A stretch of DNA of 64,000 nucleotides from NCBI GenBank assembly GCA_945916235.1, contig CAMEGQ010000002.1:4786-68785 (forward strand), written 5' to 3'. The translations under genes were made by a program, and so were the position numbers. Below, piece by piece: positions 18,184-51,935 of the stretch. Below the pieces are notes generated by a model. That model saw nothing but the letters and a program-made list of their open reading frames with translations. It was not told where the DNA came from and did no database searches. Within the stretch, counting starts at the first letter, position 1. The number at the start of each line of letters is the position of its first letter. This DNA comes from an uncultured Porphyromonadaceae bacterium (GTDB lineage Bacteria; Bacteroidota; Bacteroidia; Bacteroidales; Muribaculaceae).

Positions 18184-18232
18184 CCCGCGCCGCTTACACT
18201 GCTGAAATATTTATCTTAACCCATATAGATCC

Positions 18233-19483: not shown

Positions 19484-19504
19484 TCCAGGCATCCTTTTTC
19501 AGGT

Positions 19505-20539: not shown

Positions 20540-20564
20540 AATCAAATGTGTAAATAGTAATAAA

Positions 20565-21498: not shown

Positions 21499-23691
<2,193 letters not shown>

Positions 23692-26806: not shown

Positions 26807-26870
26807 TTGCTGGATGTTATTTGACTGGTAAGGCCTGACGTCCTGTGCCGTGACCGGCATGATGAAAGGT

Positions 26871-36400: not shown

Positions 36401-36874
36401 GCCTCCCCCCTTCGAACCTTTTACCACCACGGTGGCCCCGATCAGGGGCTCGCCGGTGGTAGCATCGGTGATGGCGCCTCGCAGCGAGTGGGTCTTTTTA
36501 CCCGATTTCTTTTCTGTTTTTGCGGGCTCCTTTTTGGCCGGAGCTTCCGGACGAAGCGAAATCTGGCGGCCGTTGACCGACCATCCGATCCCGTTGTCCG
36601 TAAACACCTGGTTGAGCACATCGGCCAGGGGCTTCTGAACGGCGTTGACCGTCACCTTGCGGTTCAGGTCCAGCACTCCGCTCTGATAGAAGAAAATCAT
36701 ATTCGATTCCTTCTCGATTATCTTTATCGCCTCGCTGACCGGTCGGTTGTCGACTTTCACCGTGACGAGCTGGTCCTGTGCGCTCAGGCACACGAGGCTC
36801 CCCGCAGCGACGAGCAACAAGGCGGCAAACCATCGGCGGCATTCCGCGACGGATTTTTTGACAAGCTGATTCAT
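33479..36874 (-). CDS. SusC-type TonB-dependent transporter with N-terminal STN signalling domain
   Basis: Start set at MNQLVKKS. The STN domain is VTVKVDNRPVSEAIKIIEKESNMIFFY..VLNQVF and a CarboxypepD_reg-like domain (LRGAITDATTGEPLIGATVVVKG) follows. The plug carries a TonB box (AEVVVVGAGTQ). The beta-barrel ends ..RTFNIGAQVTF. Confidence 0.92.
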   Translation of the reverse strand: MNQLVKKSVAECRRWFAALLLVAAGSLVCLSAQDQLVTVKVDNRPVSEAIKIIEKESNMIFFYQSGVLDLNRKVTVNAVQKPLADVLNQVFTDNGIGWSVNGRQISLRPEAPAKKEPAKTEKKSGKKTHSLRGAITDATTGEPLIGATVVVKGSKGGGTSSDIDGNYTIDVPDNGEVVISYIGYTPQTLSVGDLGVLDVKLSPTGNELAEVVVVGAGTQAKISVTGSIAAIKGDVLKAPSSSLTSNFAGKLAGVISSTTSGEPGAVSEFYIRGVGTFGGRATPLILLDDIEISSADLNRLPAESIESFSILKDASATAIYGARGANGVMLITTKKGMENTRAKINVSLEASFSQPRNRVEYVDGPTWMEVYNEAQLARNPAATPRFSQATIDATRSGVNPYVYPNVDWYDLMFNKWSYNQRANVNLTGGGSKVTYYMGLQVNHDSGILNVPKTYSFDANINDWNYIFQNNICYKPTSTTTVDLHINAQFGNRKGPGTSLSTIFDDVYNANPVSFPAYYPSEEGDNHIRFGNSIKTASRLNVNPYAHMMSSYAEENYSTINASLRATQKLDFLTEGLSVTALVNMKSYAYSTYTNTIEPYYYRVMDNTYDPSDPTYFQLESLQKGTDYIAQGAIQRYNDRTFYFDARLNYNRQFNKVHNVSAMLMYMMREFRSDVLPNRNQGFSGRFTYDYARRYLVEMNFGYNGTERLAKGHRFEFFPAVSLGWVASNESWWESLNPYIDHLKIRGSYGLVGSDETGLLAGAAHFLYRNEVSLNGGQSFITGPFVGSNSNVGLSGPAFLKYAVANAGWERAKKFDIGVDVSLFNQIDITFDYFHDRRDRILQKRSSWPTMLGYASSTPWANVGKVDNQGIELSVNWRKQLKEDLSVDMRANFTYTKNKYIYNDEPDYPYVWQTQTGKPLNATYGYIAEGLFRSEEDIKNSPSQTPLGGNPMVGDIKYRDVNGDGMITEDDKVMISEFGRQPRIQFGLGLNAVWRKWDFGVFFSGSANRTIMIDGIASFCADDFHQDRNLMKFIAEDYFQVGRNNFDAAYPRLGTTPTEVQNNMVPSTYWMRNGSFIRFKTLEIGYTFPYVRVYFSGDNLAVWGPFKLWDPELNYYSYPLSRTFNIGAQVTF

Positions 36875-37036
36875 TAGCAGGAAAATATGTGATTCATGAT
36901 TCGTCCCGGCCATTCTGCAGCGCGGGCTTCAGCGCCGGTCGGGTGTGTTAAGGTTTCGATTTAAAAATCTGATCCGGTAGGTCGGTTCGATTCGCAATCT
37001 GTTGTGTTGTCAGTAAGGTCGGTAGATTATGCAGGA

Positions 37037-38110
37037 TTATGCAGGGTCGGTCCCCTTTGCTTTCTTGGCGGCTACTTTTACTGTGTCGCCGCTGCGTTCA
37101 AAGTTGACTGGTACGGAAAAACTGATGGCAGAGAGCACGTCGGAGGGGTTCTCCGCCAGCGACAGGCGGCCCGATACGTGCATGCGGCTGATGTCGCATC
37201 CGATGTCGAATTTCAGGCCGTAGTATGTCTGGAGTCTGCGGAACACTGACGTGAGCGATTCGTTGTCATAGACAAGCTCGTTGCGAATCCAGCTGATGTA
37301 GCTTTCCACATTCACCCGCTCCGCTGCTGTCAGAGCTTCGCCGTTGGCCGAAATCTTCTGCCCCGGGCTTATGCGGCGGTGGGCCGTTGCGGTCGACACG
37401 TCGACGCTGCCGTCAACAAGCACCACGCTGGGCTGCTCCCCCTCATAGGCGAAGACATTGAATTTCGTGCCGAGCACTTTCACATCGATATTGCCCGTGC
37501 GGACAATGAATGGACGGTCCTTGTCGTGGGCCACCTCCAGATAGGCTTCGCCCTCCACGTAGATCTCGCGGTTGCCCGTGCCGAAATGCAGCGGGTACAC
37601 CACTCGGGTGCCCGAGTTTACATAGATGGCTGTGCCGTCGCTCAGACGCAGGCGCGTGCGCTTGCCGTGAGGCACCACTACCTGGTTGTAGCGTACTGTG
37701 AAGTCGTTCGTTCGGTTCTCGATTGTGTCCCGGTCAACGATAATCTTGCCCGAGGTCGTATAGTCTATCTGCGATTCTTCGCTGCCGATATTCATCTCCG
37801 ATGCGTCGGCCATGATCAGGCGCACATCTTTCGATTCCGCAGCAGCCGCCGGCTTCTGCCTGAGCGCGTAAAGCTCGATGTTGGAGGGTTCGCGTTCGGG
37901 ATTCCAATTGACGGTTGTGACAAGGAACACCACTGCGCAAGCTGCCGCCACTGCTGTGGCAGCGCCCCATATCCATGTGCGCCTGCGACGCGCTGTGGCC
38001 GCCGTCAGATCCACCTGCCATAGCCTGTCGATCTGCTCTTCGGTAAGCCGCATGTCGCTCTTGCCAAGGAGTTCGAGTAAACGTTTGAGTGCTACTGCTA
38101 ACTTAGTCAT
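37037..38110 (-). CDS. FecR-type anti-sigma factor (with DUF4974 C-terminal domain)
   Basis: One TM span (IWGAATAVAAACAVVFLVTTV), a FecR domain (..LSDGTAIYVNSGTRVVYP..REIYVEGEAYLEVAHD..PFIV) and a C-terminal LTSVFRRLQTYYGLKFDI. The start is ATG 38110 (or 38137). Confidence 0.85.
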   Translation of the reverse strand: MTKLAVALKRLLELLGKSDMRLTEEQIDRLWQVDLTAATARRRRTWIWGAATAVAAACAVVFLVTTVNWNPEREPSNIELYALRQKPAAAAESKDVRLIMADASEMNIGSEESQIDYTTSGKIIVDRDTIENRTNDFTVRYNQVVVPHGKRTRLRLSDGTAIYVNSGTRVVYPLHFGTGNREIYVEGEAYLEVAHDKDRPFIVRTGNIDVKVLGTKFNVFAYEGEQPSVVLVDGSVDVSTATAHRRISPGQKISANGEALTAAERVNVESYISWIRNELVYDNESLTSVFRRLQTYYGLKFDIGCDISRMHVSGRLSLAENPSDVLSAISFSVPVNFERSGDTVKVAAKKAKGTDPA

Positions 38111-38152
38111 AATCGTTCGGTTTTCTTGCCCTCTCAAGATGCAGTGAATATA

Positions 38153-38314: not shown

Positions 38315-39982
38315 TTATTCCACGGGCTGGCCGTTGTGGCGGACCACATGCTTGAGGTAAAGCTCAGCACACGATACGCGCTCGCAGTAGGCGAATGCCT
38401 GAGGATATGCGTAGGGTATGAATACCACCTTCACGTAGCGGGTCTTAACCGGATTAGCCTCCATATCGGCCTCAGTGAAGTCGCTGCTGTATTTTACAAA
38501 GCCATCAATAGTGTTGTTGGATCCTACTTCGCCGATCTTGGTCCATGTTACGGTCTGGTCGATAGCGAAGATCTTGTCCATCAGAGCCTTTGACTCGTCG
38601 GCCTTGCCATCGATGCCGTTGCCGTTGACAAACATGTTGTTGAGGTCATCTTCGGTGAAGCCTTCGGCTTTGAGCTCTGCTGCGTCGGTTGCATAGAATT
38701 CAACACGTTCGAATGTCGTATCGCCGAAGCCTGCGGTCATGGCGGCCACACCTGCGAGCCACTGGGTCTTGCCAAGGTCGATTACAGCCAGTGCGGTGGT
38801 GTAAGGAGCTTCCCAGGGCACCTGATAGTCGGGTGCCATGCTGGTACCCTTCACAATCTGGTGCGACAGCCAGCAGTTGTTGAGCTGATGGTCGGAAGAG
38901 CCTTCCACGGGCAGACCGTCCCAAAGAGCGTCGATCTGAGCGTCTAAGCCCCAGAAGTTGTTGCAGGGAGTGGTATACAGAGCCTTCCAGTTGGTCTTGG
39001 AAAGTTCGGCGATGGTGAAGCCGTGTTCGTCTTCGCTCGGGTTGCCGCCGTTGATGTCGTCGCCGGTGGTCCAGTCGCCGACCACTACGTTGCCGCCCAG
39101 CTGTACGCCCTCTTTGTCAACCGACAGGTTGATGGTCAGGGCTTCGCCCGACTTGAGGCTCAGCTTGTCGTAGCTCCATTTGTAGGCCACGCCGGCTGCG
39201 TTGAAGGCGATGCTGATGGTGTTCTGGTCCTGAGGGATCGAGATGAATTCGTAGGTAGCCAGGCGCTTCTCTGCGTCGTGGTCGAATTCGAAGGGCTTGA
39301 TGACTTCGTCAGCACCGTTGGCGTTGAGGAAGAGGTCGCTGCCGGGCTGGCCGCCGCCCCATGTGGCGAGGTTGAAGATAGCGTCAACCTTCATGCCGCT
39401 TACCGTCAGGTTAGTGATGGGGTTGGCGCCTTCAGCAGCGTAAGCTTCGGGATATGTGATTTTTACAAATACCTTGCTGAGCATATGGTTCATGGTCACC
39501 ATCAGCTTGCCGTCGACCATGTCGTTGGCGGGCACGTAGGCGCCGTTCTTCATAGCTATGAAGTCTGATGATTGCACGGCGTCGGCTGTCGACTGGTCGG
39601 TAGCCACTTTGACGTCGATCTGCGACTGGGCGTTGACCTCGTCGGTGCGGTAGGGTGCGTAGGCGATTACGCAGTGGGCTGCGTTGCGGTTCGACCAATA
39701 CATAGTGCCGTCGGTGGTCCAGCCTTCGAGCGGGCCGCCGGTCATGCGCTTGTTGTTGTAGGTGTAATCAGCGTTATCGCTCTGGATGATAAGGCCGAAT
39801 TCGCGCAGGGTCTCGGTGGTGTAGCCGGCGCGGGCTTTCACACGGGCACGGAAATTGCCCATTTCGGTTGCAACGATGATTTCGTTTTGCGGATCGGCGG
39901 CGCCGATGAGTTCTTCCTCATTGGAGCATGAGCTGAACAGCGTCAGTGCAAGTGCCGGAAGAAGCAGAAGGTTTTTCTTCAT
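38315..39982 (-). CDS. Lipoprotein: fimbrillin (Mfa/FimA-like, type V pilin) N-terminal region fused to one discoidin-like module (type II)
   Basis: 555 aa with lipobox FSSC. F.A.VK...TT..L..FGL...N..Y.YNN......W..DG.MYW......H..IAYAPY...V..DQS......SSDF..A... MNHMLSKV is the pattern of Bacteroidales fimbrillin-family proteins. The C-terminal ~235 aa is ELSKTNWKALYTTPCNNFWG...CERVSCAELYL. Confidence 0.65.
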   Translation of the reverse strand: MKKNLLLLPALALTLFSSCSNEEELIGAADPQNEIIVATEMGNFRARVKARAGYTTETLREFGLIIQSDNADYTYNNKRMTGGPLEGWTTDGTMYWSNRNAAHCVIAYAPYRTDEVNAQSQIDVKVATDQSTADAVQSSDFIAMKNGAYVPANDMVDGKLMVTMNHMLSKVFVKITYPEAYAAEGANPITNLTVSGMKVDAIFNLATWGGGQPGSDLFLNANGADEVIKPFEFDHDAEKRLATYEFISIPQDQNTISIAFNAAGVAYKWSYDKLSLKSGEALTINLSVDKEGVQLGGNVVVGDWTTGDDINGGNPSEDEHGFTIAELSKTNWKALYTTPCNNFWGLDAQIDALWDGLPVEGSSDHQLNNCWLSHQIVKGTSMAPDYQVPWEAPYTTALAVIDLGKTQWLAGVAAMTAGFGDTTFERVEFYATDAAELKAEGFTEDDLNNMFVNGNGIDGKADESKALMDKIFAIDQTVTWTKIGEVGSNNTIDGFVKYSSDFTEADMEANPVKTRYVKVVFIPYAYPQAFAYCERVSCAELYLKHVVRHNGQPVE

Positions 39983-40042
39983 GGTTATGATAGTGATTGT
40001 TTATTTTGCAGAGCGGCCTCTGCGGATAAAGGATTGATAATT

Positions 40043-40094
40043 CGGGTTTGGTTAATTCTATGACGACAAATGAAATCCTTTCTACTCAATTTTT
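40043..40094 (-). promoter_or_regulatory. Conserved promoter-like element, copy B (AAAAAtTGAGTAG-N2-AGGAT-N6-TGTCGTCATA-N11-AAACCCG on coding strand)
   Basis: It aligns block for block with 43953-44003. It lies 76-112 nt upstream of the ATG at 39982 and just downstream of the terminator hairpin of the preceding gene. Confidence 0.5.
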
Positions 40095-40131
40095 GAAATT
40101 TTTAGTGAAAAAAAGTTTTAAATGCCGTTTT

Positions 40132-40165
40132 AAATGCCGTCGCACCCTCGGATGCGACGGCATTT
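40132..40165 (-). terminator. Rho-independent terminator after the 3x-discoidin gene
   Basis: Perfect 13-bp stem aaatgccgtcgca/tgcgacggcattt with an 8-nt loop, 8 nt past the stop at 40173. On the coding strand it is followed by a T-rich stretch (..aaaacttttttt..). Confidence 0.7.
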
Positions 40166-40172
40166 TGGGGGA

Positions 40173-42512
40173 TTAGAGATTTTTGGTCACGCGGTTGAGA
40201 TAAATCTCGGCGCAGGATACGCGCTCGGCATAATCCGGGCGTCCCTGAGGATAAGCGAAGGGATGGAATACCACCTTCACGAAGCGCGTATTCACCGGAT
40301 TGTCAAAGATCTGCTTGTCGGTCAGGTCGGTTGAGTATTTCACTCCCGGCTCGAAGCTGCCGTTGCTCGACACTTCGGCGAATTTCTTCCATCCGAGCGT
40401 CTCGTCGATGGCGAAATCTTTGTCCATCAGCGCTTTGATGGCATCAGCATTGCCGTCTATGTCGCCGCCGTCCACGAACATATTGTTTTTGTCCTCATCC
40501 GTCAGCGAGGAGGTGTCGATCGTCTCGGCGTCGGTGTAGTAGAATTCCACACGGTCGAAGGTGGTGTCGCCATAGCCTGCGGTGCGGGCGGCTGCCCCCG
40601 AGAGGAGCTGCTTCTCGCCCAGGTCAATCACTGCCATGGCCGTGGTATAAGGAGCATCATAAGGCACCTGATAGTTCTCGCCCAAGTTGGTGGAGGTACC
40701 TTTTACAACCTGATGCGACATCCACGATGTTTTGTTGCGGGCTGCGTTATCGGCGAAATCCTCGGCGCCGTCCCAGAGCAGTCTGATAGGCTCTACGCCG
40801 TCTTCATAGCCCCAGAAACGGTTGCAGGGCGAAGCATAGACAGGCTGCCAGTTGGTCTTGTCCACTGTGCCGCGCTCATAACGGTCTACTGCCGGAGTCT
40901 CGATGGCTACGTCTACGCCATTGACTTTGGTCACATGGTCCATGTAGATTTCGGCGCAGGATACGCGCTCGGCATAAGCGAAGGACTGCGGGTGTTCGTA
41001 AGGCACGAATACTATCTTCACAAAGCGGGTCTTGACGGGTTTGCTGTCAAGCTCATAGGTAGAGAAGTGATTGTTGTATGTCTTCCAGGGCGTCACATCG
41101 TCGCATGTCGACATTTCAGCCACTTTCACCCAGCCTACCTGATCGTCTATGGCGAACATCTTGTCCATCAGAGTCTTGATGGCCTCTCCGTTTGCATCGA
41201 TGTCATTACCGTTTACAAACATATTTTTGCGGTCGGCTTCGTCGAAGCTGTTGGTATTGATCTCGGTAGCATCGGTGGCATAGAATTCCACGCGTTTGAA
41301 GGTGGTGTCGCCGTAGCCGGCGGTCATGGCGCCGAAGTTGGAGATCCATTCGGTCTGGCCAAGGTCGACCACAACGAATGATGTGAGGTATTTACCCTCT
41401 ACCGGCATCGTGTGCTCGCCTTTGGAGTCTACGACAACCTGATTGGAGAGCCAGCAGTTGCCTTTGTCGGTATCCATATTGAATTCGCCGTCGGCAGCGG
41501 GCAGGCCGTCCCAAAGAGCCGAGGGAACTGATGTAGTACCCCAGTAGTTGTTGCAGTTGGTGGCGTAGAGAGCGTTCCATTTCGATTTGTCGAGCGGAGC
41601 GGTCTCGTAGGTGGTGCCTGCAGGAGCGGTCACATCGACAGGCTCACCGTCTACTTCCGTCACATGATTGAGAAAAATTTCGGCGCAGGATACGCGCTCG
41701 GCATAATTGTTGAAACTCTGCGGATATGCGTAGGGTACGAACACCATCTTTACGTAGCGGGTCTTGATGGGGTTATTTTCGAGTTCGTCTTCGGTGAATT
41801 TTCTGATGTATTCTCTTCCGGCGTCGAATACCTCGTTGCCGTGATTATCTCTGGATTTCACTTCGCCGAATTTCTTCCATACCACGGTCTTGTCGACTGC
41901 GAAACATTTGTCCATCAGCGCCTTGACGCCGTTAGCGTTACCTTCGAGATCCATGCTGCCGACATTCATATTTTTGAGGTCGGCTTCAGTGAAGCGCTCG
42001 GTGATAATATTCTGAGCGTCGGTGTAGTAGAATTCCACCCGGTCGAAAGTGGTATCGTTGAAGCCGGCTGTACATGCGCCGAACGATGAAATCCATTCAA
42101 ACTTGCCGAGGTCGACCACAGCGAAAACTTCAGTGTAAGGAGCATCCCAGGGCACCTGATAGTTCGCATCTTTACCGGTTCCTTTTACAACTTCGTGCGA
42201 CACCCAGCTGTGGTTGAAATCAAGGGCACCGTCCCAAAGGGAGGTGACCACTGCGGCCTTAGCCCAGCAGTGGTTGCTGGGAGAGGAATATACGGGCTTC
42301 CAGTTCGTCTTGTCGATAGGAGAGGTGGTAAATCTCGACAGGCGTGCCGGCTTGAGGGTTTCCACACCCACACGCACGATGTCTGACGAATTGAAGGTGA
42401 AGGTGCCCACCGACGTCTTGACGTCGACGCGAGTAATATCCGCCACCACATATGTAGCTGACACACCGACCAATGCGGCTGCCAGAGCGATTTTTATTTT
42501 ATTGAAATTCAT
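40173..42512 (-). CDS. Secreted protein: short N-terminal beta module plus three tandem discoidin-like modules (type II)
   Basis: 779 aa with an SPI-type signal (..ATYVVA/DIT), no lipobox and no T9SS CTD. Three ~240-aa repeats start IDKTNW, LDKSKW and VDKTNW, and each ends AERVSCAEI(F/Y)(L/M). Confidence 0.75.
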   Translation of the reverse strand: MNFNKIKIALAAALVGVSATYVVADITRVDVKTSVGTFTFNSSDIVRVGVETLKPARLSRFTTSPIDKTNWKPVYSSPSNHCWAKAAVVTSLWDGALDFNHSWVSHEVVKGTGKDANYQVPWDAPYTEVFAVVDLGKFEWISSFGACTAGFNDTTFDRVEFYYTDAQNIITERFTEADLKNMNVGSMDLEGNANGVKALMDKCFAVDKTVVWKKFGEVKSRDNHGNEVFDAGREYIRKFTEDELENNPIKTRYVKMVFVPYAYPQSFNNYAERVSCAEIFLNHVTEVDGEPVDVTAPAGTTYETAPLDKSKWNALYATNCNNYWGTTSVPSALWDGLPAADGEFNMDTDKGNCWLSNQVVVDSKGEHTMPVEGKYLTSFVVVDLGQTEWISNFGAMTAGYGDTTFKRVEFYATDATEINTNSFDEADRKNMFVNGNDIDANGEAIKTLMDKMFAIDDQVGWVKVAEMSTCDDVTPWKTYNNHFSTYELDSKPVKTRFVKIVFVPYEHPQSFAYAERVSCAEIYMDHVTKVNGVDVAIETPAVDRYERGTVDKTNWQPVYASPCNRFWGYEDGVEPIRLLWDGAEDFADNAARNKTSWMSHQVVKGTSTNLGENYQVPYDAPYTTAMAVIDLGEKQLLSGAAARTAGYGDTTFDRVEFYYTDAETIDTSSLTDEDKNNMFVDGGDIDGNADAIKALMDKDFAIDETLGWKKFAEVSSNGSFEPGVKYSTDLTDKQIFDNPVNTRFVKVVFHPFAYPQGRPDYAERVSCAEIYLNRVTKNL

Positions 42513-42533
42513 GATAGTTAGCGTTAAAATAGA

Positions 42534-43358
42534 TTACTCGCCCGGAGTGGCAACGTAGAATTCAAAAATTTTGGTGCGGTCCGCGGCGTTAGCGACATCG
42601 TGACCGAAGGGAGTCACGTTGAGCTTGATGTAGCGGGCACGAGTCCCTTTCTGCCTGTCGGAGAGCTGATAGAAGTAGCGGCCTACGTGTTCTGCCGTGC
42701 AGGTGGACACGGAGATAGCCCCCAGGCGAGTCCATGCCACCTTTTTGTCGGCCTCCTTGATTTTGTTGTGGACAGGTACATAGGCAGAGATGTTCTTGTC
42801 ATCATTTATGCCAATTCCATTCATTAAATTTCTCTCAGTTTCGGTGAGCTGGGGATCTTCTATGGTGGTGGAGCAGTAGAAGTCTACGGCTGCGGGCATC
42901 ACATCATAATATCCCATGTTTTCCAGACTGCCAGCCAGTATGCCGACGGCTGCAAGCTCTACTTCCTCGCCGAGGTCGATCACTACGAAGGGGTTGCCTA
43001 AGTTGTAGCTGTTGGCAAAGCCGTCATTGATATAGCCCATCCAGCCGTCGCCGTTTTCCGCGCCGTCAATCATCTTTGCGTAAGGGCCGTAACCCATGGC
43101 GATAGTGCCGTAGGCGATTTTCCAATTGCTCTTGTCGGTCAGATGGTTGCGCACTGGAGCTTCCGAGGGGTCGTTTGTAAGCGAGTGCTCGATGGTGACG
43201 CCTTCGGCAGCTTCGATGATAGTGCGCGTAAGGGCATCCTCACCCGAATATATTACGTAGCAGGTGGTCGCCTGGTCGTCGGCAGCCATAGCCGGAGCCA
43301 CACAGGCTGCTGCGCATGCCATTGCCATGGCAGATTTAAGTAAAGTATTGAAGTTCAT
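42534..43358 (-). CDS. Secreted single discoidin-like module protein (type I, diverged)
   Basis: 274 aa with signal peptide ..VAPAMA/ADD. LTDKSNWKIAYGT..MIDGAENGDGWMGY..PFVVIDLG..AVDFYCST..ARYIKLNVTPF..TKIFEFYV follows. It is closest to the C-terminal module of 29913-31478. Confidence 0.7.
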   Translation of the reverse strand: MNFNTLLKSAMAMACAAACVAPAMAADDQATTCYVIYSGEDALTRTIIEAAEGVTIEHSLTNDPSEAPVRNHLTDKSNWKIAYGTIAMGYGPYAKMIDGAENGDGWMGYINDGFANSYNLGNPFVVIDLGEEVELAAVGILAGSLENMGYYDVMPAAVDFYCSTTIEDPQLTETERNLMNGIGINDDKNISAYVPVHNKIKEADKKVAWTRLGAISVSTCTAEHVGRYFYQLSDRQKGTRARYIKLNVTPFGHDVANAADRTKIFEFYVATPGE

Positions 43359-43861
43359 TATTTTACAAATTTAAAGGTTGATGCCGACGACTGGAGTACA
43401 TAGACGCCTGCCGAGAGCGACTCGATGGATACTGTCACGCTGCCGGATGCATCCGCCTGCGCTGCGGCCACCTGACGGCCGTCGAGGGTGTAGACGGTTA
43501 CAGCCGACCCTGCCTCAAGCCCTACGGCCTGCACTGCCGTGCGCGTCAGGGTGAACAGGTTGGCCTGCTTGCCGCTCACGTCGGTGATGCCGGAAGGCGT
43601 GTCGGCGGTTTGGTAGTAGACGTGTTTGAACTCCGAAAGCGGGAACTGTATCTCATGCCCTTCGTTGAAGTTCACTTTCACTGCGTCTGCTGTCAGACTG
43701 ATGACTGGCTTTTCTACAATAAAGAAGTTGGTCTCGCTGTTGTCGTTTTTTACGACTGTCATCACATTCGAATGCGGTGTTTTGCAAAATCCCGTCAGGG
43801 CTGATGCGCACACCAGAAATGTGGCCGCAATTCTGCGGAGCATGTGTTTTTGTTTAAACAT
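43358..43861 (-). CDS. Small secreted protein consisting of a ~60-aa N-domain plus a T9SS (Por) C-terminal sorting domain
   Basis: 167 aa. The C-terminal VTVYTLDGRQVAAAQADASGSVTVSIESLSAGVYVLQSSASTFKFVK fits the type-A CTD pattern (..vYdl.Gr.v....g...i.l..l..GvY.l.....kk.ik). Its stop overlaps the start of the next gene. Confidence 0.7.
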   Translation of the reverse strand: MFKQKHMLRRIAATFLVCASALTGFCKTPHSNVMTVVKNDNSETNFFIVEKPVISLTADAVKVNFNEGHEIQFPLSEFKHVYYQTADTPSGITDVSGKQANLFTLTRTAVQAVGLEAGSAVTVYTLDGRQVAAAQADASGSVTVSIESLSAGVYVLQSSASTFKFVK

Positions 43862-43952
43862 TTGATATGGATTGATTTAGGTTGATATTGCGTATAGTGA
43901 GTATAATGTATAGGTAGCTGATATTGCTGATTTAAGGACGGGCGTGTGTCGC

Positions 43953-44003
43953 CGGGTTTTCTTCTTATGACGACACCGCCCATCCTGTACTACTCATTTT
44001 TTT
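43953..44003 (-). promoter_or_regulatory. Conserved promoter-like element, copy A (AAAAAAATGAGTAG-N3-AGGAT-N6-TGTCGTCATA-N6-AAACCCG on coding strand)
   Basis: It aligns with 40043-40094. It lies 92-142 nt upstream of the ATG at 43861, in the 197-nt AT-rich gap after the 1257-aa gene. Confidence 0.5.
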
Positions 44004-44058
44004 AGTTAATTTTCCGGGAAAAATTTCCGATTTTTTTCAGATTCCTTAAAATCTTGCG

Positions 44059-47000
44059 TCAGGGCATCTGAATCGCCATCAGCTGATTGGCTTCGAGCGT
44101 CAGTGTGATAGCCCCGTCGGCCACTTCGATGCGCTGCCCGGCGCCAAGGCCGTCCCGGGTCACGGGATAGGCCGTCACATACGTGGCCGAAGCCCAGTCT
44201 GACGGCAGCTTCCATGTGCGGCCGCTGTAGCCCTCCTCGGAATATGCCATGATTTCCTTATGGTCGGTGATCCACGGCATCGGGAAGAAGATATTGTTGC
44301 CGTCGCGGAGCGTCACTCCGTTCTGGGTGATGGTCTTGGAGCTGCTGCTGTAGGTGGCGGTAAGCCCGTCGGAATATCTGACGGTCTGAGTCTTCGATGT
44401 CGAGTAGCCGCTCTCGGTGTAGTCCTCCACCTTGTGGCGGTTGAGATACATATACGGCACAGTGGTCAGGGCGATCCCATTCTTGGCTCTGTCGAACGAG
44501 GCGTTGAAGTCTTTGGCTACTGACAGATAGTTGAAGTCGTCCTCAGCCTGATAGTTGCTGCCGAAGAGGAAATCCTCAGCGGCCCAGACGCCTTCGCCGA
44601 ATTTGCCCGACATACCGCCGGCGATGAGCGAGGCGGGGAGGACTTTGCGCTTGGTGCAGTCGATGTCGAGCCACCATGTGGCCGGGCTGAGGCCGTACAT
44701 GGCGTCGTTGCGGTTGCCGTTCTCAAGGAATTCCACCGTCACGTCCACGCCGTGGTTGCGAAGCAGCCTGAGCACCTTGCGCATCGTGGCTTCGCCCTGA
44801 TCGACGGTCAGATTATGGTAAGCGCTCTGGCGCGCATAGAAGGCGTCGATCTGGAGCGTATGGGTGAGGTCGAGGCGCACCAGCTCGTAAAGCTCCTGAA
44901 GGCGCTTGTGGAGCAGTCCGGTCTCCCACTCCTTGGTGAGGTTGACGTTGTAGAGCGGCAGCCCGTTGAGCTCGCCTACGGTATAGAGCGAGCCGTCGGC
45001 ATTCTTGCAGATCAGGTCGCGGCTGAGGTATTCCTGCCAGAGCGGCGAATTTTCGTAGGCGTCGTGGATGGTCACATGCACGCTGACGGTGGTGTTGTAT
45101 TTCTCGGCCTGCGCCTGAAGCCAGTAGAAGCTCTGGCGGGCTGTGGCGTCCTCAGGGCGCTTCAGCGCCGGGTTGAACTCATGGAAGGCGGGATATTTGC
45201 AGTCGTGGCCTTCATACTGCCAGCCCACAAGGTAGACCACCTTATGGATGCCGCGGCTCAGGGCGTCGATCCCCTTGATCACGTCGAGCGCCTCGGCAAA
45301 GTTAAGTGCCACTCTGGAGCCTCCGTTGCCGTCGGGCAGAGCCATGAAGAGCTTCATCATCATCGACTGGGAATAGTCGTGCATATACGGGCGCTCGGGA
45401 GCCATGGTTTGGGAGTAATCGTAGACAGCGTCGGAAGGGTTGTCGCTCCAGCTCTCCTTAGGCTCCGTAATCTCCTGACCGTCGACAGCCGTGACGTGGG
45501 TCAGCGAAATTTCGGCGCACGATACGCGCTCGGCATAGTCGAAGGCCTGGGGATATTCGTAAGGCACGAATACCACCTTGACAAAGCGGGCCTTAACCGG
45601 AGCATCGCGCAGGGCGCGGTCGGAGAGCGTCATGCCGTACTCCTGCCATGCCGCTGGGTTCCCCTCGGATTCCACTTCGGCAAATTTCTTCCAGCTGACC
45701 TTGCTGTCCACGGCGAAAATCTTATCCATCAGGGCCTTGGTGGCGGTGACGTCATTGTCGATTTCCCGGCCGTTGACCAGCATGTTGCGGCGGTCGGTGG
45801 CGGTGAACGACGAAACGTCGATGTCGGTGGCGTCGGTGTAGTAGAATTCCACGCGCTTGAAAGATGTGTCGCCATAGCCCGCGGTGATGGCGCTGGCTCC
45901 GGAGAGCCACTGCTTCTGCCCGAGGTCGATCACGGTGAATGCCTGGGTATAAGGCGCCTCCCAGGGCACCTCGTAGCCGTCCTTCATGTTGACTCCCTTC
46001 ACAATCTGGTGCGACAGCCAGCAATGGTTGAGCTGAGGCGGGATTTCGCCGCTGACGGGGATGGAGGGCAGGCCGTCCCAGAGCGCTGATGCCTGAGCGT
46101 CATGCCCCCAGAAATCGTTGCACGGGGTGGAGTAGAGCGAGCGCCACGTGGATTTGTCGACTGCCGAGCGCGTGTATTTGTCGGTGGCAGGCGAAACGTC
46201 TTTCCCATCCACGGAGGCCACGCGGTCGAGGTAAAGTTCGGCGCAGGATACGCGTTCGCAGTAGGCGCTGCTCTGCGGATATTCGTAAGGGATAAATACC
46301 ACCTTGACAAATCGGGTCTTGACGGGGTTGCTGTCGAGCTGAGAGTTGGAGAAAGTGGTCTTGTAAGTGGTCCACGACTGGAAGTTACCTTTGCTGTCTA
46401 CTTCGCCGAACTTCCTCCAGCTGACTTTGCCGTCTACGGCGAAAATCTTATCCATCAGGGCTTTGGTGGCGTCGGCGTCATTGTCGATTCCGGTGCCGTT
46501 GACCAGCATGTTGTCGCGGTCGGCCTGGGTGAACGATGAAGTGTCGATGTCGGTGGCGTCGGTGCAGTAGAATTCCACGCGCTTGAAGGTCGTGTCGCCG
46601 TAGCCGCCGGTGCGGGCGCCGAACGAGGAGATCCATTCCTCATGTCCCAGGTCGATTACGGCAAAGGCCTGGGTGTAGGGTGCATCCCAGGGCACCTGAT
46701 ATTCCGGCCCCTTGCTGACTCCCTTTACGATCTGGTGCGACAGCCAGCAATTGTTCAGGTCGGCAGGAGCCTGTGTGCCGCCGACGTTGTCCCAGAGCGC
46801 GTCGATCTGAGCATCGTAGCCCCAGTGGACGTTGCAGGGGGTGGTGTAAAGCGCCTGCCAGGTAGATTTGTCGATAGTTTCGGTGGAGTATTTGCCGTCG
46901 TAGACCGGAGCCACCGGCTGACCTTCGAATTTGGTCACATGGCCCAGATAAAGCTCGGCGCATGATACGCGCTCGGCATAGTCGCCGCGGTTCTGCGGAT

Positions 47001-47832
47001 ATGCGTAGGGGTGGAATACCACCTTGACATAGCGAGTCTTGACGGGCCGGTTGTCCAGATCGTCGGTGGAGAAGGCGTGCTCGTAGGTCTTCCACGGGGT
47101 GAAGTCGCCGTTGGTGTTTACCTCGCCGAATTTTTTCCACTGGATGCCGTGATCCACCGAGAAGGTCTTGTTCATCAGGGCCTTGACGGCGTCGACATTG
47201 AGCGTGGACGCGTCGAGGTCGCCGCCGATACCGCTGCCGTTGACAAACATGTTGTTGCGGTCTTCATCGCTAAATGTTTCGGTATCAATCGAGTAGGCGT
47301 CGGTGTAGTAGAACTCCACACGCTCGAAGGTGGTATCGCCCCAGCCGGCGGTACGGGCGCCGAACGACGATATCCATTCGAACTGGCCGAGGTCGATCAC
47401 GGCAAATGCCTGGGTGTAAGGCGCTTCCCAAGGCACCTCGTAGGCATCACCTTTTCCGGTTCCCTTCACAATCTGGTGCGACAGCCAGCTGTTTTTCAGG
47501 CCGTCGGGAGCGCTTTCACCCTCCACGCCGTCCCAAAGGGCGGACGGGACGGAGGCAGTGCTCCAGCAGTTGTTGCAGGGGGAGGCGTAGACGGCCGTCC
47601 AGCCCGACTTGTCGAGCGCGGCGGTGGTGTATCTCTCCCGTTTGTTGACCTTTATGGTCTCCACGGTGATTTTTGCCACATCGCGGTGGTTGAATGTGAA
47701 CACTTCGCCGCCCGGAATCTTGATGTCCAGGCGGGTGTCGGCGGAGCCGGTGATGTCTGCCAGAGTAGCGATTGCTCCGAACGACGCCGCAAGTACGGCC
47801 ATGGGGAGCGCTTTTTGTATGTTGAGCTGCAT
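44059..47832 (-). CDS. Secreted multidomain protein: N-terminal beta module, three discoidin-like modules (type II), C-terminal GH101/GH129-like putative catalytic domain (paralog 3)
   Basis: 1257 aa with an SPI-type signal (..IATLA/DIT). The repeats start LDKSGW (~47620), IDKSTW (~46880) and VDKSTW (~46165). From about nt 45450 down the protein shows ERPYMHDY, KVVYLVGWQYEGHDCKYPAF, QIDAFYAR, GVDVTVEF and WWLD, as in 26871-29903. Confidence 0.75.
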   Translation of the reverse strand: MQLNIQKALPMAVLAASFGAIATLADITGSADTRLDIKIPGGEVFTFNHRDVAKITVETIKVNKRERYTTAALDKSGWTAVYASPCNNCWSTASVPSALWDGVEGESAPDGLKNSWLSHQIVKGTGKGDAYEVPWEAPYTQAFAVIDLGQFEWISSFGARTAGWGDTTFERVEFYYTDAYSIDTETFSDEDRNNMFVNGSGIGGDLDASTLNVDAVKALMNKTFSVDHGIQWKKFGEVNTNGDFTPWKTYEHAFSTDDLDNRPVKTRYVKVVFHPYAYPQNRGDYAERVSCAELYLGHVTKFEGQPVAPVYDGKYSTETIDKSTWQALYTTPCNVHWGYDAQIDALWDNVGGTQAPADLNNCWLSHQIVKGVSKGPEYQVPWDAPYTQAFAVIDLGHEEWISSFGARTGGYGDTTFKRVEFYCTDATDIDTSSFTQADRDNMLVNGTGIDNDADATKALMDKIFAVDGKVSWRKFGEVDSKGNFQSWTTYKTTFSNSQLDSNPVKTRFVKVVFIPYEYPQSSAYCERVSCAELYLDRVASVDGKDVSPATDKYTRSAVDKSTWRSLYSTPCNDFWGHDAQASALWDGLPSIPVSGEIPPQLNHCWLSHQIVKGVNMKDGYEVPWEAPYTQAFTVIDLGQKQWLSGASAITAGYGDTSFKRVEFYYTDATDIDVSSFTATDRRNMLVNGREIDNDVTATKALMDKIFAVDSKVSWKKFAEVESEGNPAAWQEYGMTLSDRALRDAPVKARFVKVVFVPYEYPQAFDYAERVSCAEISLTHVTAVDGQEITEPKESWSDNPSDAVYDYSQTMAPERPYMHDYSQSMMMKLFMALPDGNGGSRVALNFAEALDVIKGIDALSRGIHKVVYLVGWQYEGHDCKYPAFHEFNPALKRPEDATARQSFYWLQAQAEKYNTTVSVHVTIHDAYENSPLWQEYLSRDLICKNADGSLYTVGELNGLPLYNVNLTKEWETGLLHKRLQELYELVRLDLTHTLQIDAFYARQSAYHNLTVDQGEATMRKVLRLLRNHGVDVTVEFLENGNRNDAMYGLSPATWWLDIDCTKRKVLPASLIAGGMSGKFGEGVWAAEDFLFGSNYQAEDDFNYLSVAKDFNASFDRAKNGIALTTVPYMYLNRHKVEDYTESGYSTSKTQTVRYSDGLTATYSSSSKTITQNGVTLRDGNNIFFPMPWITDHKEIMAYSEEGYSGRTWKLPSDWASATYVTAYPVTRDGLGAGQRIEVADGAITLTLEANQLMAIQMP

Positions 47833-47846: not shown

Positions 47847-50504
47847 TTACAAGATTTTGCCGTCTTTTACGCTGACGGTATATGTGCCTGACCCGTAGGT
47901 CTTTGTTTCGTATTTGCCGTTGCCCGTGGGGATGCAGACGTCGGCTGTGGTGTTGGCCGGGATGGTGAAAGTCCAGCTAAACAGTCCGTTACGGTTGGTC
48001 CAGGCGCTCCCGACGGGGCCGTAGACGCTCCGGTAGCTTGCCGATACGCTTTCAAGCCCTTCAGGCACTACTGGCTTAAGCATCAGATGCTTGTAGCCGT
48101 GGCTCCCCTCAGCGTTGTTTATTCCGGCCAGGTAGGCGTATTCCCAGATCAGAAGGTCGCCGAGGAGCATCACATGGTTGCCCGAATTCATGTCGGGGGC
48201 GGCGGTGTTGCCGTTCCAGAGCTCCCAGATGGTAGTGGCGCCCTGGTCGGCCATATAGCCCCACGAGGGGTAGTCGCGGTTGGTGGCCAGCTTCAGGGCC
48301 AGGTCGGTGCGGCCGTTTTCGGTGAGTCCGCGCATCAGATGCTGGATCCCCATCACTCCTACGCTCACATGACCTTTGAAATCGCCCATGGTCTTGTCGA
48401 CGATGTTCTGCATCACCTTATGCTCATATCCCTGTGGCACCATGCCGAAGCGCAGGGGGAGCAGATTGGAGGTGACGGTATTGTTGGCATACTGAGCCGT
48501 AGCCTCGTTGAAAAACCGGCGGTTGAAGGCGTCGCGCACCTTTACGGCTTCGGCTTCCAGAGTCCCGGCGTCGGCATCCTTACCGGCGATGCGCGCGAAT
48601 TTTGCCAGCAGCTTCGACAGGTAATAGCGGTGGGAGGTGGCGAGCAGGGCGCCGTCGGTAGTACGTGTGGAATCTTTCGAATGAATCAGCCACTTGTTCT
48701 CGGGAGGGAGACACCAGTCGCCGTATTCGTCGCGCTCGATGATGTAGTCCTTCTCGTATACGGCACACATGTGGTCGAACCATCGCTTCATGGCCGGATA
48801 ATGTCTGAGGATAGGCTCAGAGTCGCCATACTGCTGATATATCATGTCGGCCACGGTGAGAAACGCCGCGGGCCAGGTCATATTGTCGGAGTTGACATCC
48901 CAGTAGAGCGGAGCGATATCGGGGATGCTCCCGTTGGCCATCTGCACCGATTCGATATCGTCGAGCCATTTGGTGTAGAGTAGATGGTTGCCGAAGGGGA
49001 AGGCTTCGCCGTAGGCTCCCGTGGTGCGGTCGCCGAGCCATCCCATGCGCTCGTCGCGCTGCGGGCAGTCGGTGGGCATGCCGCAGTAGTTGCTGCGTAT
49101 TCCCCAGAATGCGTTGCGGTAGATCTGATTGATAGTCGGGTCGGAGGTGGAAAATTCGCCGGTGGTGGGCATGTCGTCGTAAACCACCATCCCCCAGAAT
49201 TCATTGGGCGAGGCCTGATAGTTGAGCCCTTCGATCTCCACATAGCGGAAGCCGTGGTAGGTGAAGCGCGGCTCCCACCTCTGCTCGCCCCATTCGGCCA
49301 GGCGGTAGGTGTCGGCGGGTTTGGCCGAGCGCAGATTGGTCACATACAGGGTGCTGTCGGGGTTGAGGGTCTCGGAGTAGCGTACCTTGATCTCCTTACT
49401 GTTGATGCCGCCGCGGAATTTGCAGCGCAGCCAGCCGACCATGTTCTGCCCCATGTCGATGACGAACACACCGGGGCGCGTCTCGAACATGCGCTTGGGG
49501 GTGATGATGTCTTTAATCTTCAGCGATGGGTTCATCTGAGGCTCCAGGCGGCCGCCGGGGGAGCCGGTCAGCGGAGCGGCCATCCAGGTCGAGTCGTTGT
49601 AGCCGTTGCAGTTCCAGCCGTCCATCTCCATGGTGGCGTCGTAGATTTCGCCGTCGTAGATGCTGGCGGCGCGTACGGGCCCCTGGTCGGTCAGACGCCA
49701 GCTGCCGTCGCTGACCACACTCTGGCGCGCGCCGTCTTTGTAGACTATCTCCAGGCGGCTGAGCATGCGCGGATAGCCGAACGAGCGGTTGGAGGGCATG
49801 CGCTCGGGCATGTAGCGGCCGTTGGAGAGCGTCACTCCGATGGTGTTGCGCCCGCGCTTCAGCAGCGCTGTCACGTCGTGGGCGTTGTAGCGCACGAGCT
49901 TGTTGAACATGGTGGGCATCTGCAGGAGCACCTCGTCGGTGACGTTCTGCCCGTTGAGCGAGGCCTCATACAGGCCCAGACCCACGATGTAGAGCGTGGC
50001 ATAATCCACCTCTTTATCTTCCGTGGCGAACTCCTTGCGCAGATAGCGTGCCGGCACGGCCTCGGCGGGGTTGTCTCCCTTGAGCTTTCCGCCCAGCCAT
50101 TCGGCGCCCCATCTCATCTCGCCGCCGGGGATGCCGGTCTGAAACATTTCAGCCTCGGAAGTGGCCGTCTGGCCGTGGTTGTCGCTGACGGTGACGGTCC
50201 ACCGGTAGCGCGTCATGGGCTGCAGAGCCTTCCCGGCGTAGGGGATATAGACCGACTGCTCCGATGTTACTTCGCCCGAGTCCCATACGGGGCCGTTGGC
50301 GTCGCTGACGCGGATGCGGTAGGTGTTCTGGAGTGTATTTTGCCGGTCGGAATCGAGTTTCCAGCTGAAGCGCGGGGCCTGAGCCTCGACGCAAAGCGGC
50401 CGCCGGGCCATCTCGGTGGTCAGATCGTTCACTTCAAGCTTGGCTGCCGCCTGCATTGTCGCCAGACTTATCAGCCCGATAGAAGCTACTCTTAACAGGT
50501 TCAT
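47847..50504 (-). CDS. Alpha-L-rhamnosidase, glycoside hydrolase family 78
   Basis: 885 aa with a signal peptide and N-terminal ..APRFSWKL.S......Q..YRI.V. The catalytic (alpha/alpha)6 motif is DCPQRDERMGWLGD. Confidence 0.9.
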   Translation of the reverse strand: MNLLRVASIGLISLATMQAAAKLEVNDLTTEMARRPLCVEAQAPRFSWKLDSDRQNTLQNTYRIRVSDANGPVWDSGEVTSEQSVYIPYAGKALQPMTRYRWTVTVSDNHGQTATSEAEMFQTGIPGGEMRWGAEWLGGKLKGDNPAEAVPARYLRKEFATEDKEVDYATLYIVGLGLYEASLNGQNVTDEVLLQMPTMFNKLVRYNAHDVTALLKRGRNTIGVTLSNGRYMPERMPSNRSFGYPRMLSRLEIVYKDGARQSVVSDGSWRLTDQGPVRAASIYDGEIYDATMEMDGWNCNGYNDSTWMAAPLTGSPGGRLEPQMNPSLKIKDIITPKRMFETRPGVFVIDMGQNMVGWLRCKFRGGINSKEIKVRYSETLNPDSTLYVTNLRSAKPADTYRLAEWGEQRWEPRFTYHGFRYVEIEGLNYQASPNEFWGMVVYDDMPTTGEFSTSDPTINQIYRNAFWGIRSNYCGMPTDCPQRDERMGWLGDRTTGAYGEAFPFGNHLLYTKWLDDIESVQMANGSIPDIAPLYWDVNSDNMTWPAAFLTVADMIYQQYGDSEPILRHYPAMKRWFDHMCAVYEKDYIIERDEYGDWCLPPENKWLIHSKDSTRTTDGALLATSHRYYLSKLLAKFARIAGKDADAGTLEAEAVKVRDAFNRRFFNEATAQYANNTVTSNLLPLRFGMVPQGYEHKVMQNIVDKTMGDFKGHVSVGVMGIQHLMRGLTENGRTDLALKLATNRDYPSWGYMADQGATTIWELWNGNTAAPDMNSGNHVMLLGDLLIWEYAYLAGINNAEGSHGYKHLMLKPVVPEGLESVSASYRSVYGPVGSAWTNRNGLFSWTFTIPANTTADVCIPTGNGKYETKTYGSGTYTVSVKDGKIL

Positions 50505-50546: not shown

Positions 50547-51935
50547 TTAAAACTCTTTTACGCAGGGCTTGCCGTCGAGCCATGCCATCATATTCATTAC
50601 CAGGAAGTTCCAGTTCTGAAATCCCCGGTTGAGCATCGGCTCGCCGCTCACGGGGTCGTAATATTCATGCAGGGCACCGAACCGCTCGTAATCGCGGCCG
50701 AGGAGCAAGACGGTCTTCTCGGCCAGCTCGCGGGCTTCATCCTCGTAGCCGTAGTCCACGAGGCTGCGCCATACGAAGTAGTTGGCGCAGGTCCAGATCG
50801 GGCCGAGCCACGACGAAGGGTTGCCGCTGGCCTTGATATTGTACATCTTTTCGGTGGGCGACAGCGTGTAAACGCCTGCCGGGGCGTGAAACAGCTTGTC
50901 GTTGCGGTAGTTACGCTCCACGATCTCCCTGGCCTGCTCCTCAGTGGCTATACCGGCCCACATGGGCAGAAAGCCGCTCCATACGCTGAAGCGCTGCAGC
51001 AGGCAGTCGTAGTCGCGCGGCGCTCCCTGATGGAGCGTAAATCCCGAATGGTCGGGCTTTTGGACCGGAAGCAGATTAAGGTCGACGCTGTAGTAGAATC
51101 CGTCGCGCGGATCCCAGCAATGCCGGTTGATGGCCTCAGCCAGCTCGCGGGCCATCCCTTCGTAGTCAGCGGCGGCTGATGTCATGCCCAGACACTCGCT
51201 GATGTAGACCATGGCTTTGAGCTCGCGATACATCAGAGCGTTGAGAAAGACAGAGCCGGAACTCTCCTCCGGGCGGTAGAAGGTCGAGGGGTCGTTGTCG
51301 ACTCCGATCATCTCATCGTTTTCCCAGTAGAGCAGCCCCGTGGCCTTATGGCGGTGGAAGGTCATGTATCTGTTGACGAAAGCGGCGAGCTTTGCAAAGT
51401 CTTCGCGCAGCCATTCGGCGTCGCCGTCCATGTTTCTGACGATAAATGCCGCATGCTGAGCCAGGCAGGGCTTGTGCATGTTGTTCTTGTAAGTGTTGCG
51501 TGAGCGGAGCATCTCGTCGCGCGAGGGGGAAGAGGCGGAAATGAGGATGGGGACATATCCGTCGAATCCTCCGTAGCTTAACGAGTTGAGCACACACCCC
51601 TGCTCATATTTCAGCGCTTCTTTGCGGTCGGCTTTTGAGCCGTAATCCTGCAGAATCTGGCGCAGGGCCACGCTGGTGAGCCATGAGTCCCAGTCCCATA
51701 AATCGTTGAGATAGGCTGCGCTGCCGGGCACGATAAAGGGGTATCTGAGCGAACCGGCAGGCTCGCGGTACATCTTCTTAAGGTTGGTGCTGATGCTGTC
51801 GCGGCAGATTTTCTTATACTTTTCAAGGTTGGCTGCAGTGCGCTCGGGCATCGCACCCGCAAGGCTCAGGCAGGCTGAAAGGGTCAGCGCAGTACAGATA
51901 AAGATGCGTTTAAAGGGTTTTAGCGTGGTGTTCAT
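50547..51935 (-). CDS. (alpha/alpha)6 six-hairpin glycoside hydrolase, GH63/GH37-like (MGH1/trehalase-like)
   Basis: 462 aa with possible lipobox LSAC. LNDLWDWDSWLTS and WLGPIWTCANYFVWRSLVDYGY parallel the trehalase/GH63 signature positions but are not canonical GH37. Confidence 0.6.
   Translation of the reverse strand: MNTTLKPFKRIFICTALTLSACLSLAGAMPERTAANLEKYKKICRDSISTNLKKMYREPAGSLRYPFIVPGSAAYLNDLWDWDSWLTSVALRQILQDYGSKADRKEALKYEQGCVLNSLSYGGFDGYVPILISASSPSRDEMLRSRNTYKNNMHKPCLAQHAAFIVRNMDGDAEWLREDFAKLAAFVNRYMTFHRHKATGLLYWENDEMIGVDNDPSTFYRPEESSGSVFLNALMYRELKAMVYISECLGMTSAAADYEGMARELAEAINRHCWDPRDGFYYSVDLNLLPVQKPDHSGFTLHQGAPRDYDCLLQRFSVWSGFLPMWAGIATEEQAREIVERNYRNDKLFHAPAGVYTLSPTEKMYNIKASGNPSSWLGPIWTCANYFVWRSLVDYGYEDEARELAEKTVLLLGRDYERFGALHEYYDPVSGEPMLNRGFQNWNFLVMNMMAWLDGKPCVKEF

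Follow-up and report, generated by a model that had tools for sequence, protein, structure and literature searches.

What is the role of a row of five genes for secreted proteins in which one large protein module recurs eight times? This question is raised by positions 38315-47832 of the DNA analysed here, a stretch of 64,000 nucleotides (nt) on contig CAMEGQ010000002.1 of an uncultured Muribaculaceae bacterium, hereafter called the window. The five genes, here named A to E, had been described in an initial annotation of the letters as an array of atypical discoidin-like proteins. Comparative analysis indicates that the module is most likely a carbohydrate-binding module (CBM) of a Bacteroidales polysaccharide-utilisation locus, and its predicted structure is best described as a lineage-restricted, previously unclassified, insert-bearing branch of the discoidin/CBM32 fold.

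Copies and sequence of the module

All five open reading frames (ORFs) were found on the minus strand where they had been placed. A hidden Markov model (HMM) of nine copies, run against the six-frame ORFs of the window, detected exactly nine copies of one module of ~210-244 amino acids (aa), with domain E-values from 1e-69 to 1e-118. Eight copies belong to the array (three each in the proteins of genes E and B, one each in A and C), and the ninth, also predicted earlier, is carried by the product of a gene starting at position 29913 (g29913). The copies were sorted into seven type II modules and two divergent type I modules, and the genes that carry them, together with gene D, are as follows.

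38315-39982, minus strand: gene A, 555 aa; lipobox LFSSC/SNEEE, Mfa_like_1 stalk, C-terminal type II module (aa 318-555, nt 38318-39031; module HMM 378 bits)
40173-42512, minus strand: gene B, 779 aa; signal peptide, N-terminal element (aa 25-54, nt 42351-42440), three type II modules (aa 57-292, nt 41637-42344; aa 298-535, nt 40908-41621; aa 541-779, nt 40176-40892; module HMM 349-357 bits each)
42534-43358, minus strand: gene C, 274 aa; signal peptide, N-terminal element (aa 31-60, nt 43179-43268), type I module (aa 65-274, nt 42537-43166; module HMM 231 bits)
43358-43861, minus strand: gene D, 167 aa; signal peptide, six-strand N-terminal domain (aa ~31-85), linker, type A C-terminal sorting domain of the type IX secretion system (T9SS; aa ~102-167)
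44059-47832, minus strand: gene E, 1257 aa; signal peptide, N-terminal element (aa 32-61, nt 47650-47739), three type II modules (aa 64-307, nt 46912-47643; aa 311-546, nt 46195-46902; aa 549-788, nt 45469-46188; module HMM 375-390 bits), then a GH101-like catalytic domain with a GH101C beta-sandwich (nt 44062-45468; PF12905, 40.1 bits against a cut-off of 25; PF17451)
29913-31478, minus strand: g29913, surface lipoprotein in SusE position; BT_3987-like_N, DUF4973, type I module (aa 305-521, nt 29916-30566; module HMM 235 bits)

The earlier descriptions of the single genes agreed with the profile searches. Protein A is a fimbrillin-like lipoprotein (PF13149, Mfa_like_1, E-value 2.7e-28; the lipobox was read in the sequence), and we infer that it is a tip-type or non-polymerising stalk, the C-terminus of which is taken up by the module. 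Protein E combines three modules with a catalytic domain (Glyco_hydro_101 and Glyco_hyd_101C), and D is a T9SS mini-protein, its sorting domain scoring 28.3 bits with TIGR04183 (cut-off 23) and 22.5 bits, below the cut-off of 27, with PF18962. Protein B has no catalytic domain and no Pfam family above cut-off. Homologues of protein C were found as P0001-P0006 and P0019 of the search described below.

The type II modules, delimited by motif anchoring and then aligned, showed 45-63% mutual identity over ~236 aa, and the conserved sequence blocks quoted for them earlier were present in these copies. The type I modules shared 23-31% identity with type II and 34% with one another. Identity between copies at the DNA level was 60-80%, with a period of ~720-747 nt within B and E; the repeats are therefore products of old duplications and not of chance. 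Recent tandem duplication or gene conversion of the modules was considered and rejected, as the copies are only 60-80% identical in DNA. The loop blocks are nearly invariant across the seven type II copies, which are otherwise only ~55% identical, and this suggests to us the same binding function in all copies. Two details of the earlier description had to be changed. Firstly, three cysteines had been called invariant, but in the alignment only the cysteine of VSCAE was present in 7/7 type II copies, while the PCN cysteine was found in 6/7 and the NCW cysteine in 4/7. Secondly, an insert of ~45 aa after the TDA block had been tied to the type II copies; it is indeed present there, but it occurs in both divergent type I copies as well.

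Family assignment and predicted fold

The outer sequence blocks had been compared to an F5/8-type-C/CBM32 beta-sandwich, with no assignment of the module to a characterised CBM, and both statements were borne out. PF00754 (F5_F8_type_C) matched the module in partial stretches only, at 13.2-16.3 bits (E-values 0.01-0.1) against a cut-off of 28.2. DUF5000, DUF4998 and NPCBM gave no Pfam match at E-values up to 0.1, a search of NCBIfam gave no match, and the nine-copy profile retrieved no discoidin protein, or anything else relevant, from the sequences of the PDB. An end-to-end match to a characterised family with the insert included was looked for as well, and none was found.

The structure of the second module of E was predicted with AlphaFold2, with the nine copies supplied as alignment (pLDDT 76, pTM 0.80). 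The model is a beta-sandwich with a confident core, in which the insert is folded as two helices (residues 126-132 and 143-157). A Foldseek search of the model against the PDB returned 165 matches at E-values up to 1e-3, headed by C-terminal discoidin domains of Bacteroides lipoproteins (3hnm, 3f2z, 3ggl and 2kd7), CBM32 domains solved in complex with galactose or Tn antigen (2v72 and 4a44), BT2857 (7m1b) and factor V. The best matches, to CBM32s and Bacteroides discoidin domains, had a probability of 1.00, E-values of ~1e-6 and target-normalised TM scores of 0.6-0.72, whereas the query-normalised TM score was ~0.45 and the matched targets were 137-180 aa long. The high target scores, the low query score and the short targets thus support a discoidin / F5-8 type C / CBM32 beta-sandwich as the predicted core, with the insert as an extra part. 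The two-helix insert was absent from all listed structural matches.

The CBM32s of Clostridium perfringens NanJ (2v72) and of GH89 (CBM32-5, 4a44) have the same core as predicted for the module (probability 1.00, E-value ~3e-6, target TM score 0.69-0.72), and, like the module, they are appended in multiple copies to extracellular glycosidases. The module is distinguished from them by its length (~236 against ~140 aa), by the two-helix insert of ~45 aa and, in type II, by ~25 additional N-terminal loop residues; its identity to the structural matches is 10-15%. Nor does it have the compact form of 130-160 aa typical of F5_F8_type_C, as it measures 210-244 aa and contains internal helices. The best structural matches were the four Bacteroides discoidins annotated as 'putative chitobiase' and the SusE-like BT2857. 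Their layout is comparable to that of g29913 (BT_3987-like_N, DUF4973 and a C-terminal discoidin-type domain, in SusE position), but the Bacteroides domains are 150-170 aa long, have no helical insert and show no detectable sequence similarity to the module. Most of these Bacteroides discoidin entries come from structural genomics, and we know of no reported ligand for them.

Rarity and distribution of the module

The module family is very rare. An exhaustive HMM search of 1.84 billion cluster representatives yielded 33 proteins at E-values up to 1e-3. A word-indexed search of 5.8e9 clusters gave six matches for the nine-copy profile, all of them C-like proteins, and it missed A and B (555 aa and 779 aa in the metagenome contig L001) even though these are contained in the collection; it underestimates the family, and the statement on rarity is therefore based on the exhaustive search. 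The 33 proteins were assigned to five architecture classes: Mfa-like lipoproteins with a module, BT_3987-like_N/DUF4973 lipoproteins with a module, C-like proteins of ~270 aa, multi-module B-like proteins, and GH101-like enzymes with one N-terminal module (P0021 and P0025). Outside this species, all type II hallmark motifs together were found in a single protein, the A-like lipoprotein P0008; an A-like gene of the Muribaculaceae locus L009 and module 2 of P0009 have part of the set. When 185,579 species genomes were scanned by pattern for type II relatives, 24 pattern matches were obtained, of which none was confirmed.

The near-identical metagenome contigs L001 (99.5% nt identity) and L051 carry the same array, which shows it to be stable within the species. 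The order A-B-C-D-E had been regarded as a possible conserved apparatus, but in the search of other genomes the complete order was found only in the same species, on these two contigs, and elsewhere only sub-blocks of it were recovered. Three sub-blocks recur: the lipoprotein in SusE position, an A-like gene upstream of FecR (L009-L011), and a block D-C-enzyme, with proteins of 167, 279 and 827 aa in locus L002 and of 166, 266 and 761 aa in L050. Protein B and the tripling of the module in E represent expansions at the level of this species.

Association with a family of GH101-like enzymes

The catalytic domain of E has two relatives without module in the window, both at lower coordinates than g29913.

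28371-29903, minus strand: g28371, GH101-like enzyme without module; lipobox and acidic stretch LTSC/SDEEE; PF12905
26871-28361, minus strand: g26871, GH101-like enzyme without module; type-I signal peptide only; PF12905

All three domains scored above the PF12905 cut-off of 25 (32-40 bits), and that of E was 61% identical to g28371 and 53% to g26871. From these signals g28371 is probably surface-exposed and g26871 probably periplasmic. An alignment scan with the catalytic domain gave 44 species loci, the best match being in a metagenome-assembled genome (MAG) of an uncultured Muribaculaceae bacterium, with 73% identity. Among the 44 enzyme loci the module HMM matched in ten Bacteroidales loci only (L004-L013), and there the module was always placed on a lipoprotein just upstream of the enzyme gene or genes. 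In P0021, P0025 and the 827-aa enzyme of L002, one module is fused N-terminally to the same catalytic domain.

The surroundings of the enzyme are conserved too. Most of the loci L004-L012 have the order FecR-SusC-SusD-lipoprotein (with module)-GH101L_2-GH101L_1-GtaA-like, often followed by GH78, trehalase-like and GH63-like genes. In L004-L012 the SusD/SusC/FecR core is syntenic with 52-83% aa identity, the GtaA-like gene is kept after the GH101-like genes, and the pair corresponding to g28371 and g26871 is retained in most Bacteroidales loci that have the module. The trio of GH78, GH63-like and trehalase-like genes adjoins the D-C-enzyme block in L002 and is found also in L010-L012.

The homologues of the enzyme in Firmicutes are large wall-anchored proteins with two to three NPCBM domains together with SLH, FIVAR or leucine-rich repeat (LRR) domains. 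There NPCBM (PF08305) accompanies the same catalytic domain (33-39% identity) in two to three copies, and in two of three scanned enzymes it occupies the position of the module. By sequence NPCBM belongs to another family, the Firmicutes loci gave no match to the module HMM, and anchoring is by SLH, FIVAR or LRR instead of lipid or T9SS. A homologue from Barnesiella has a T9SS sorting domain of its own, which gives surface export of this enzyme family by the T9SS a precedent.

The only solved relatives of the catalytic domain are in GH101 (EngBF, 2zxq): PF12905 is above cut-off and the C-terminal beta-sandwich matches. The similarity is very weak (E-value 4e-9, by profile), and a context of GH78, rhamnose and GH63-like genes is unlike that of mucin core-1 release. 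No characterised member of the GH101-like family was found, and the literature search on the enzyme family or the locus gave nothing relevant. The family (L014-L042) was also observed in Paenibacillus, Cohnella, Lachnospiraceae, Clostridia and a Bifidobacteriaceae MAG, with wall-anchored enzymes of 1100-2200 aa that bear NPCBM, FIVAR, SLH or BspA-type LRR domains.

Proposed role of the module

The window contains FecR, SusC, SusD, a module-bearing lipoprotein and glycoside hydrolase (GH) genes, i.e., the components of a polysaccharide-utilisation locus. We consider the module to be a CBM for the substrate of this locus because it takes the place of NPCBM and because it is tied exclusively to one glycosidase family in SusCD loci; it is from genomic context and from the NPCBM domains of the Firmicutes homologues that we infer glycan capture. 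The complete reading, to which we give a probability of roughly 60%, is that an insert-bearing CBM32-like module serves a SusCD locus with a GH101-like enzyme, with docking of the anchorless proteins by D.

In this scheme a one-copy ancestral arrangement, with the module on the lipoprotein in SusE position, would have been expanded in this species. The expansion can be seen in the genes: both A and g29913 are lipoproteins with a module, E gained three copies, and B is non-catalytic with three copies. Several near-identical binding loops would give avidity for a repetitive polymer, which E would cut outside the cell, and SusCD would then import the fragments for g26871, GH78 and the other enzymes.

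If confirmed, the module would represent a new CBM-type family, missed by the curated models, in which a helical sub-domain is added to the discoidin fold. Few glycan systems have been characterised in Muribaculaceae, which are abundant in the gut, and the analysis flags a whole conserved locus of Muribaculaceae and related gut Bacteroidales, with a distant GH101 relative as its key enzyme. Module proteins could serve as affinity reagents for finding the substrate of the locus.

Localisation, the N-terminal element and gene D

The initial annotation had noted that B and E possess ordinary signal peptides and share an N-terminal segment. Both points hold, the segment being found in other family members also. 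The only targeting signal found in proteins B, C and E is a type-I signal peptide; lipobox and sorting domain are absent. In A, g29913 and g28371, by contrast, a lipobox is followed by acidic residues, the pattern of surface-exposed lipoproteins in Bacteroidota. Every signal-peptide-only member of the family starts with one or two copies of a beta element of ~30 aa (h-x-h-x4-G-x4-F-x-h-x2-h-x2-h-x-h-E), and no lipoprotein member has it. Among the loci examined an HMM of the element matched only these signal-peptide-only proteins (E-value 3e-5 for B). It was also observed that mature B and E (window positions 42440 and 47757) start with Asp-Ile-Thr (A/DIT) after the predicted cleavage, and the enzymes of L002 and P0025 with (I/A)(T/A)DEIT; the DIT start could be a conserved processing or recognition site.

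Genes like D accompany the element. Each of the five independent module loci (the window, L002, L048, L049 and L050) has a D-like gene directly before the genes for module proteins; its overlap with the gene behind it is 1 nt in the window, where the stop codon of D overlaps the start codon of C, and 4 nt in the other four. The gene that follows is C-like in L002 and L050 and encodes a multi-module protein in L048 and L049. A profile search revealed relatives of D next to unrelated cargo: a SusCD locus with peptidases S8/S9 (L052/L059), a locus with a 1158-aa protein (L056) and an S8 peptidase locus (L058). In L052/L059 and L056 the D-like gene is followed directly by a gene for a signal-peptide-only protein with an element-like start, and in L058 such a gene comes two genes after it; here the resemblance was judged by eye, and the element HMM gave an E-value of 0.002 for L052 and no significant match for L056. 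The D-like and cargo genes are located as follows.

L052, 9256-10124: D-like gene and cargo
L059, 6001-6725: D-like gene and cargo
L056, 1936-5885 and 6606-6965: D-like genes and cargo
L058, 980-4353: D-like gene and cargo

In total, eight of nine D-like loci have an element-bearing partner in the operon. Two side observations were made on these loci. In L056 a second D-like gene follows the cargo gene. In L049, downstream of the D-like gene and of the two-module protein P0009, there is a gene (2621-5965) for a 1114-aa protein, the end of which resembles a T9SS sorting domain (GIYIIKAGKTTAKVALR), which means that several T9SS-related products are clustered there.

In the AlphaFold2 model of D, an N-terminal domain of six strands (pLDDT ~80) is joined by a flexible linker to a sorting domain of seven strands. 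With Foldseek the model gave weak matches to the sorting domains of RgpB, Kgp, PorZ and mirolase, none of them below an E-value of 1e-3. Like the T9SS type A cargo RgpB, D ends in a type A sorting domain with a predicted seven-strand sandwich; it differs in that its passenger is only a six-strand domain of ~55 aa and in that it is proposed to carry or anchor separate polypeptides. That the N-terminal domain of D consists of two copies of the element was considered and rejected (element HMM E-values of 0.5-4 on D proteins, hhalign probability 0.4%).

The co-occurrence of D-like genes and element suggests a docking scaffold. The retention of B and E had been left as unexplained, with no part given to D; the absence of an anchor in these proteins stands, but a D-like T9SS partner is now a candidate answer. 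D-like mini-proteins of ~160 aa might be dedicated carriers or anchors that bind the three-strand element of anchorless proteins, a tentative proposal that we ourselves regard as rather doubtful. Its weakest step is that the element of B, C and E would dock onto the N-terminal domain of D, itself exported and anchored by type IX secretion; the partner would either leave the cell together with D by the type IX route or be caught at the surface. If true, this would be a modular system similar to cohesin-dockerin for varied Bacteroidales cargo (module proteins, GH101-like enzymes and unrelated proteins), and, if confirmed, a new principle of secretion or anchoring by which enzymes that are neither lipoproteins nor equipped with a sorting domain are placed on the surface.

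Points against the proposal and alternative explanations

A number of observations weigh against the scheme of a CBM-type module with docking by D. On the side of the module, residues 25-64 of the AlphaFold2 model are poorly defined, and these are the conserved loops specific to type II (PCN..WG, LWDG and NCWLSHQIVKG); no ligand-contacting residues could be named from the model, and the discoidin fold serves lipid and protein binding as well. On the side of the enzyme, the catalytic-domain profile aligns with EngBF in the first half of the barrel and in the C-terminal sandwich alone. The region of the catalytic Asp/Glu is not covered by this alignment, and the invariant D203 and E241 (alignment A4) are candidates by spacing. 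With regard to docking, signal-peptide-only proteins of Bacteroidota are periplasmic by default, the D-like locus L055 had no element-bearing neighbour that we could see, homology of the N-terminal domain of D to the element was not detectable by the element HMM or hhalign, and the literature search found no report of co-export, docking or piggyback transport by the T9SS of proteins without sorting domain.

The localisation data would also fit periplasmic B, C and E, in which the modules bind imported oligosaccharides or stabilise the enzyme, and D is an unrelated, co-transcribed gene. We find this unlikely, even though it agrees with the lack of lipobox and sorting domain in the three proteins and with the failure to relate D to the element, and even though the locus already has a probable surface enzyme in g28371 (LTSC/SDEEE). 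Short periplasmic oligosaccharides would hardly call for repeated modules or for a three-module protein without catalytic domain; the Firmicutes homologues are extracellular, wall-anchored and equipped with multiple NPCBMs, and that of Barnesiella has its own T9SS domain. Co-occurrence in 8/9 operons, unrelated cargo included, also speaks against D being a bystander.

It is improbable that the modules are adhesion or protein-interaction domains, and the array an adhesin or variable-surface family situated in a sugar locus. Such a function could be read from the lipid- and protein-binding discoidins in the Foldseek list (factor V/VIII C2, muskelin, APC10, SUN), from the fimbrillin-like stalk of A and from the module model, on which no ligand site could be defined. 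Yet in the 44 enzyme loci the module was seen solely beside one glycosidase family or fused to it, and always inside SusCD loci; it takes the architectural position of NPCBM, and sugar-binding CBM32s and SusE-like proteins are the structures that it matches best. Neither an invertase nor a switch made of inverted repeats came to notice, although no search was aimed at them. Just as improbable is the release of B, C and E, free or on outer-membrane vesicles, as shared scavengers independent of D: they have no covalent anchor and many Bacteroidales glycosidases are packed into vesicles, but in Bacteroides such packing concerns mainly lipoproteins with an acidic export signal, which is absent from B, C and E, and the strict pairing of element and D-like genes would be left unexplained.

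Other genes of the locus and the probable substrate

The CBM reading of the module leads to the question of which glycan is bound. The remaining genes of the locus are as follows; SusD, SusC and the FecR-type gene were identified from Pfam families on the near-identical contig L001 and from synteny, the others by Pfam.

16759-21380, plus strand: rhaB, rhaA, rhaT and rhaD
21499-23670, minus strand: GH97
24377-26860, minus strand: GtaA-like putative glycosidase (DUF4964/DUF5127)
31497-33440, minus strand: SusD
33479-36913, minus strand: SusC
37037-38137, minus strand: FecR-type anti-sigma factor
47847-50504, minus strand: GH78 alpha-L-rhamnosidase
50547-51935, minus strand: GH63/MGH1-like enzyme
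52001-53392, minus strand: trehalase-like enzyme

No gene for an extracytoplasmic function (ECF) sigma factor was identified in the scanned flanks. The target of the locus is probably a rhamnose-containing heteroglycan, because GH78, the rhamnose catabolism genes, the GH63-like and trehalase-like enzymes and GH97 are present together. A fungal member of the GtaA-like family (DUF4964/5127/4965/1793) was enriched by an activity-based glycosidase probe, and a possible role as glycoside hydrolases was suggested for the family (PMC9668830).

Some minor observations were made on these genes. In B, C and D the GC content at third codon positions was 0.64-0.67, below the values of A, E and the remaining genes of the locus (0.70-0.82, mostly 0.76-0.82); these three genes may have been inserted later or be expressed at a different level. 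The GH63/MGH1-like protein gave a weak match to the six-hairpin domain of rhamnosidases (E-value 4e-6), and the three (alpha/alpha)6-barrel enzymes of the locus may act on the same rhamnose-rich substrate. Just beyond the rhamnose genes an MFS sugar transporter (10560-12020) and the glucuronate isomerase UxaC (13673-15091) are encoded, and the target glycan may thus also yield uronic acid.

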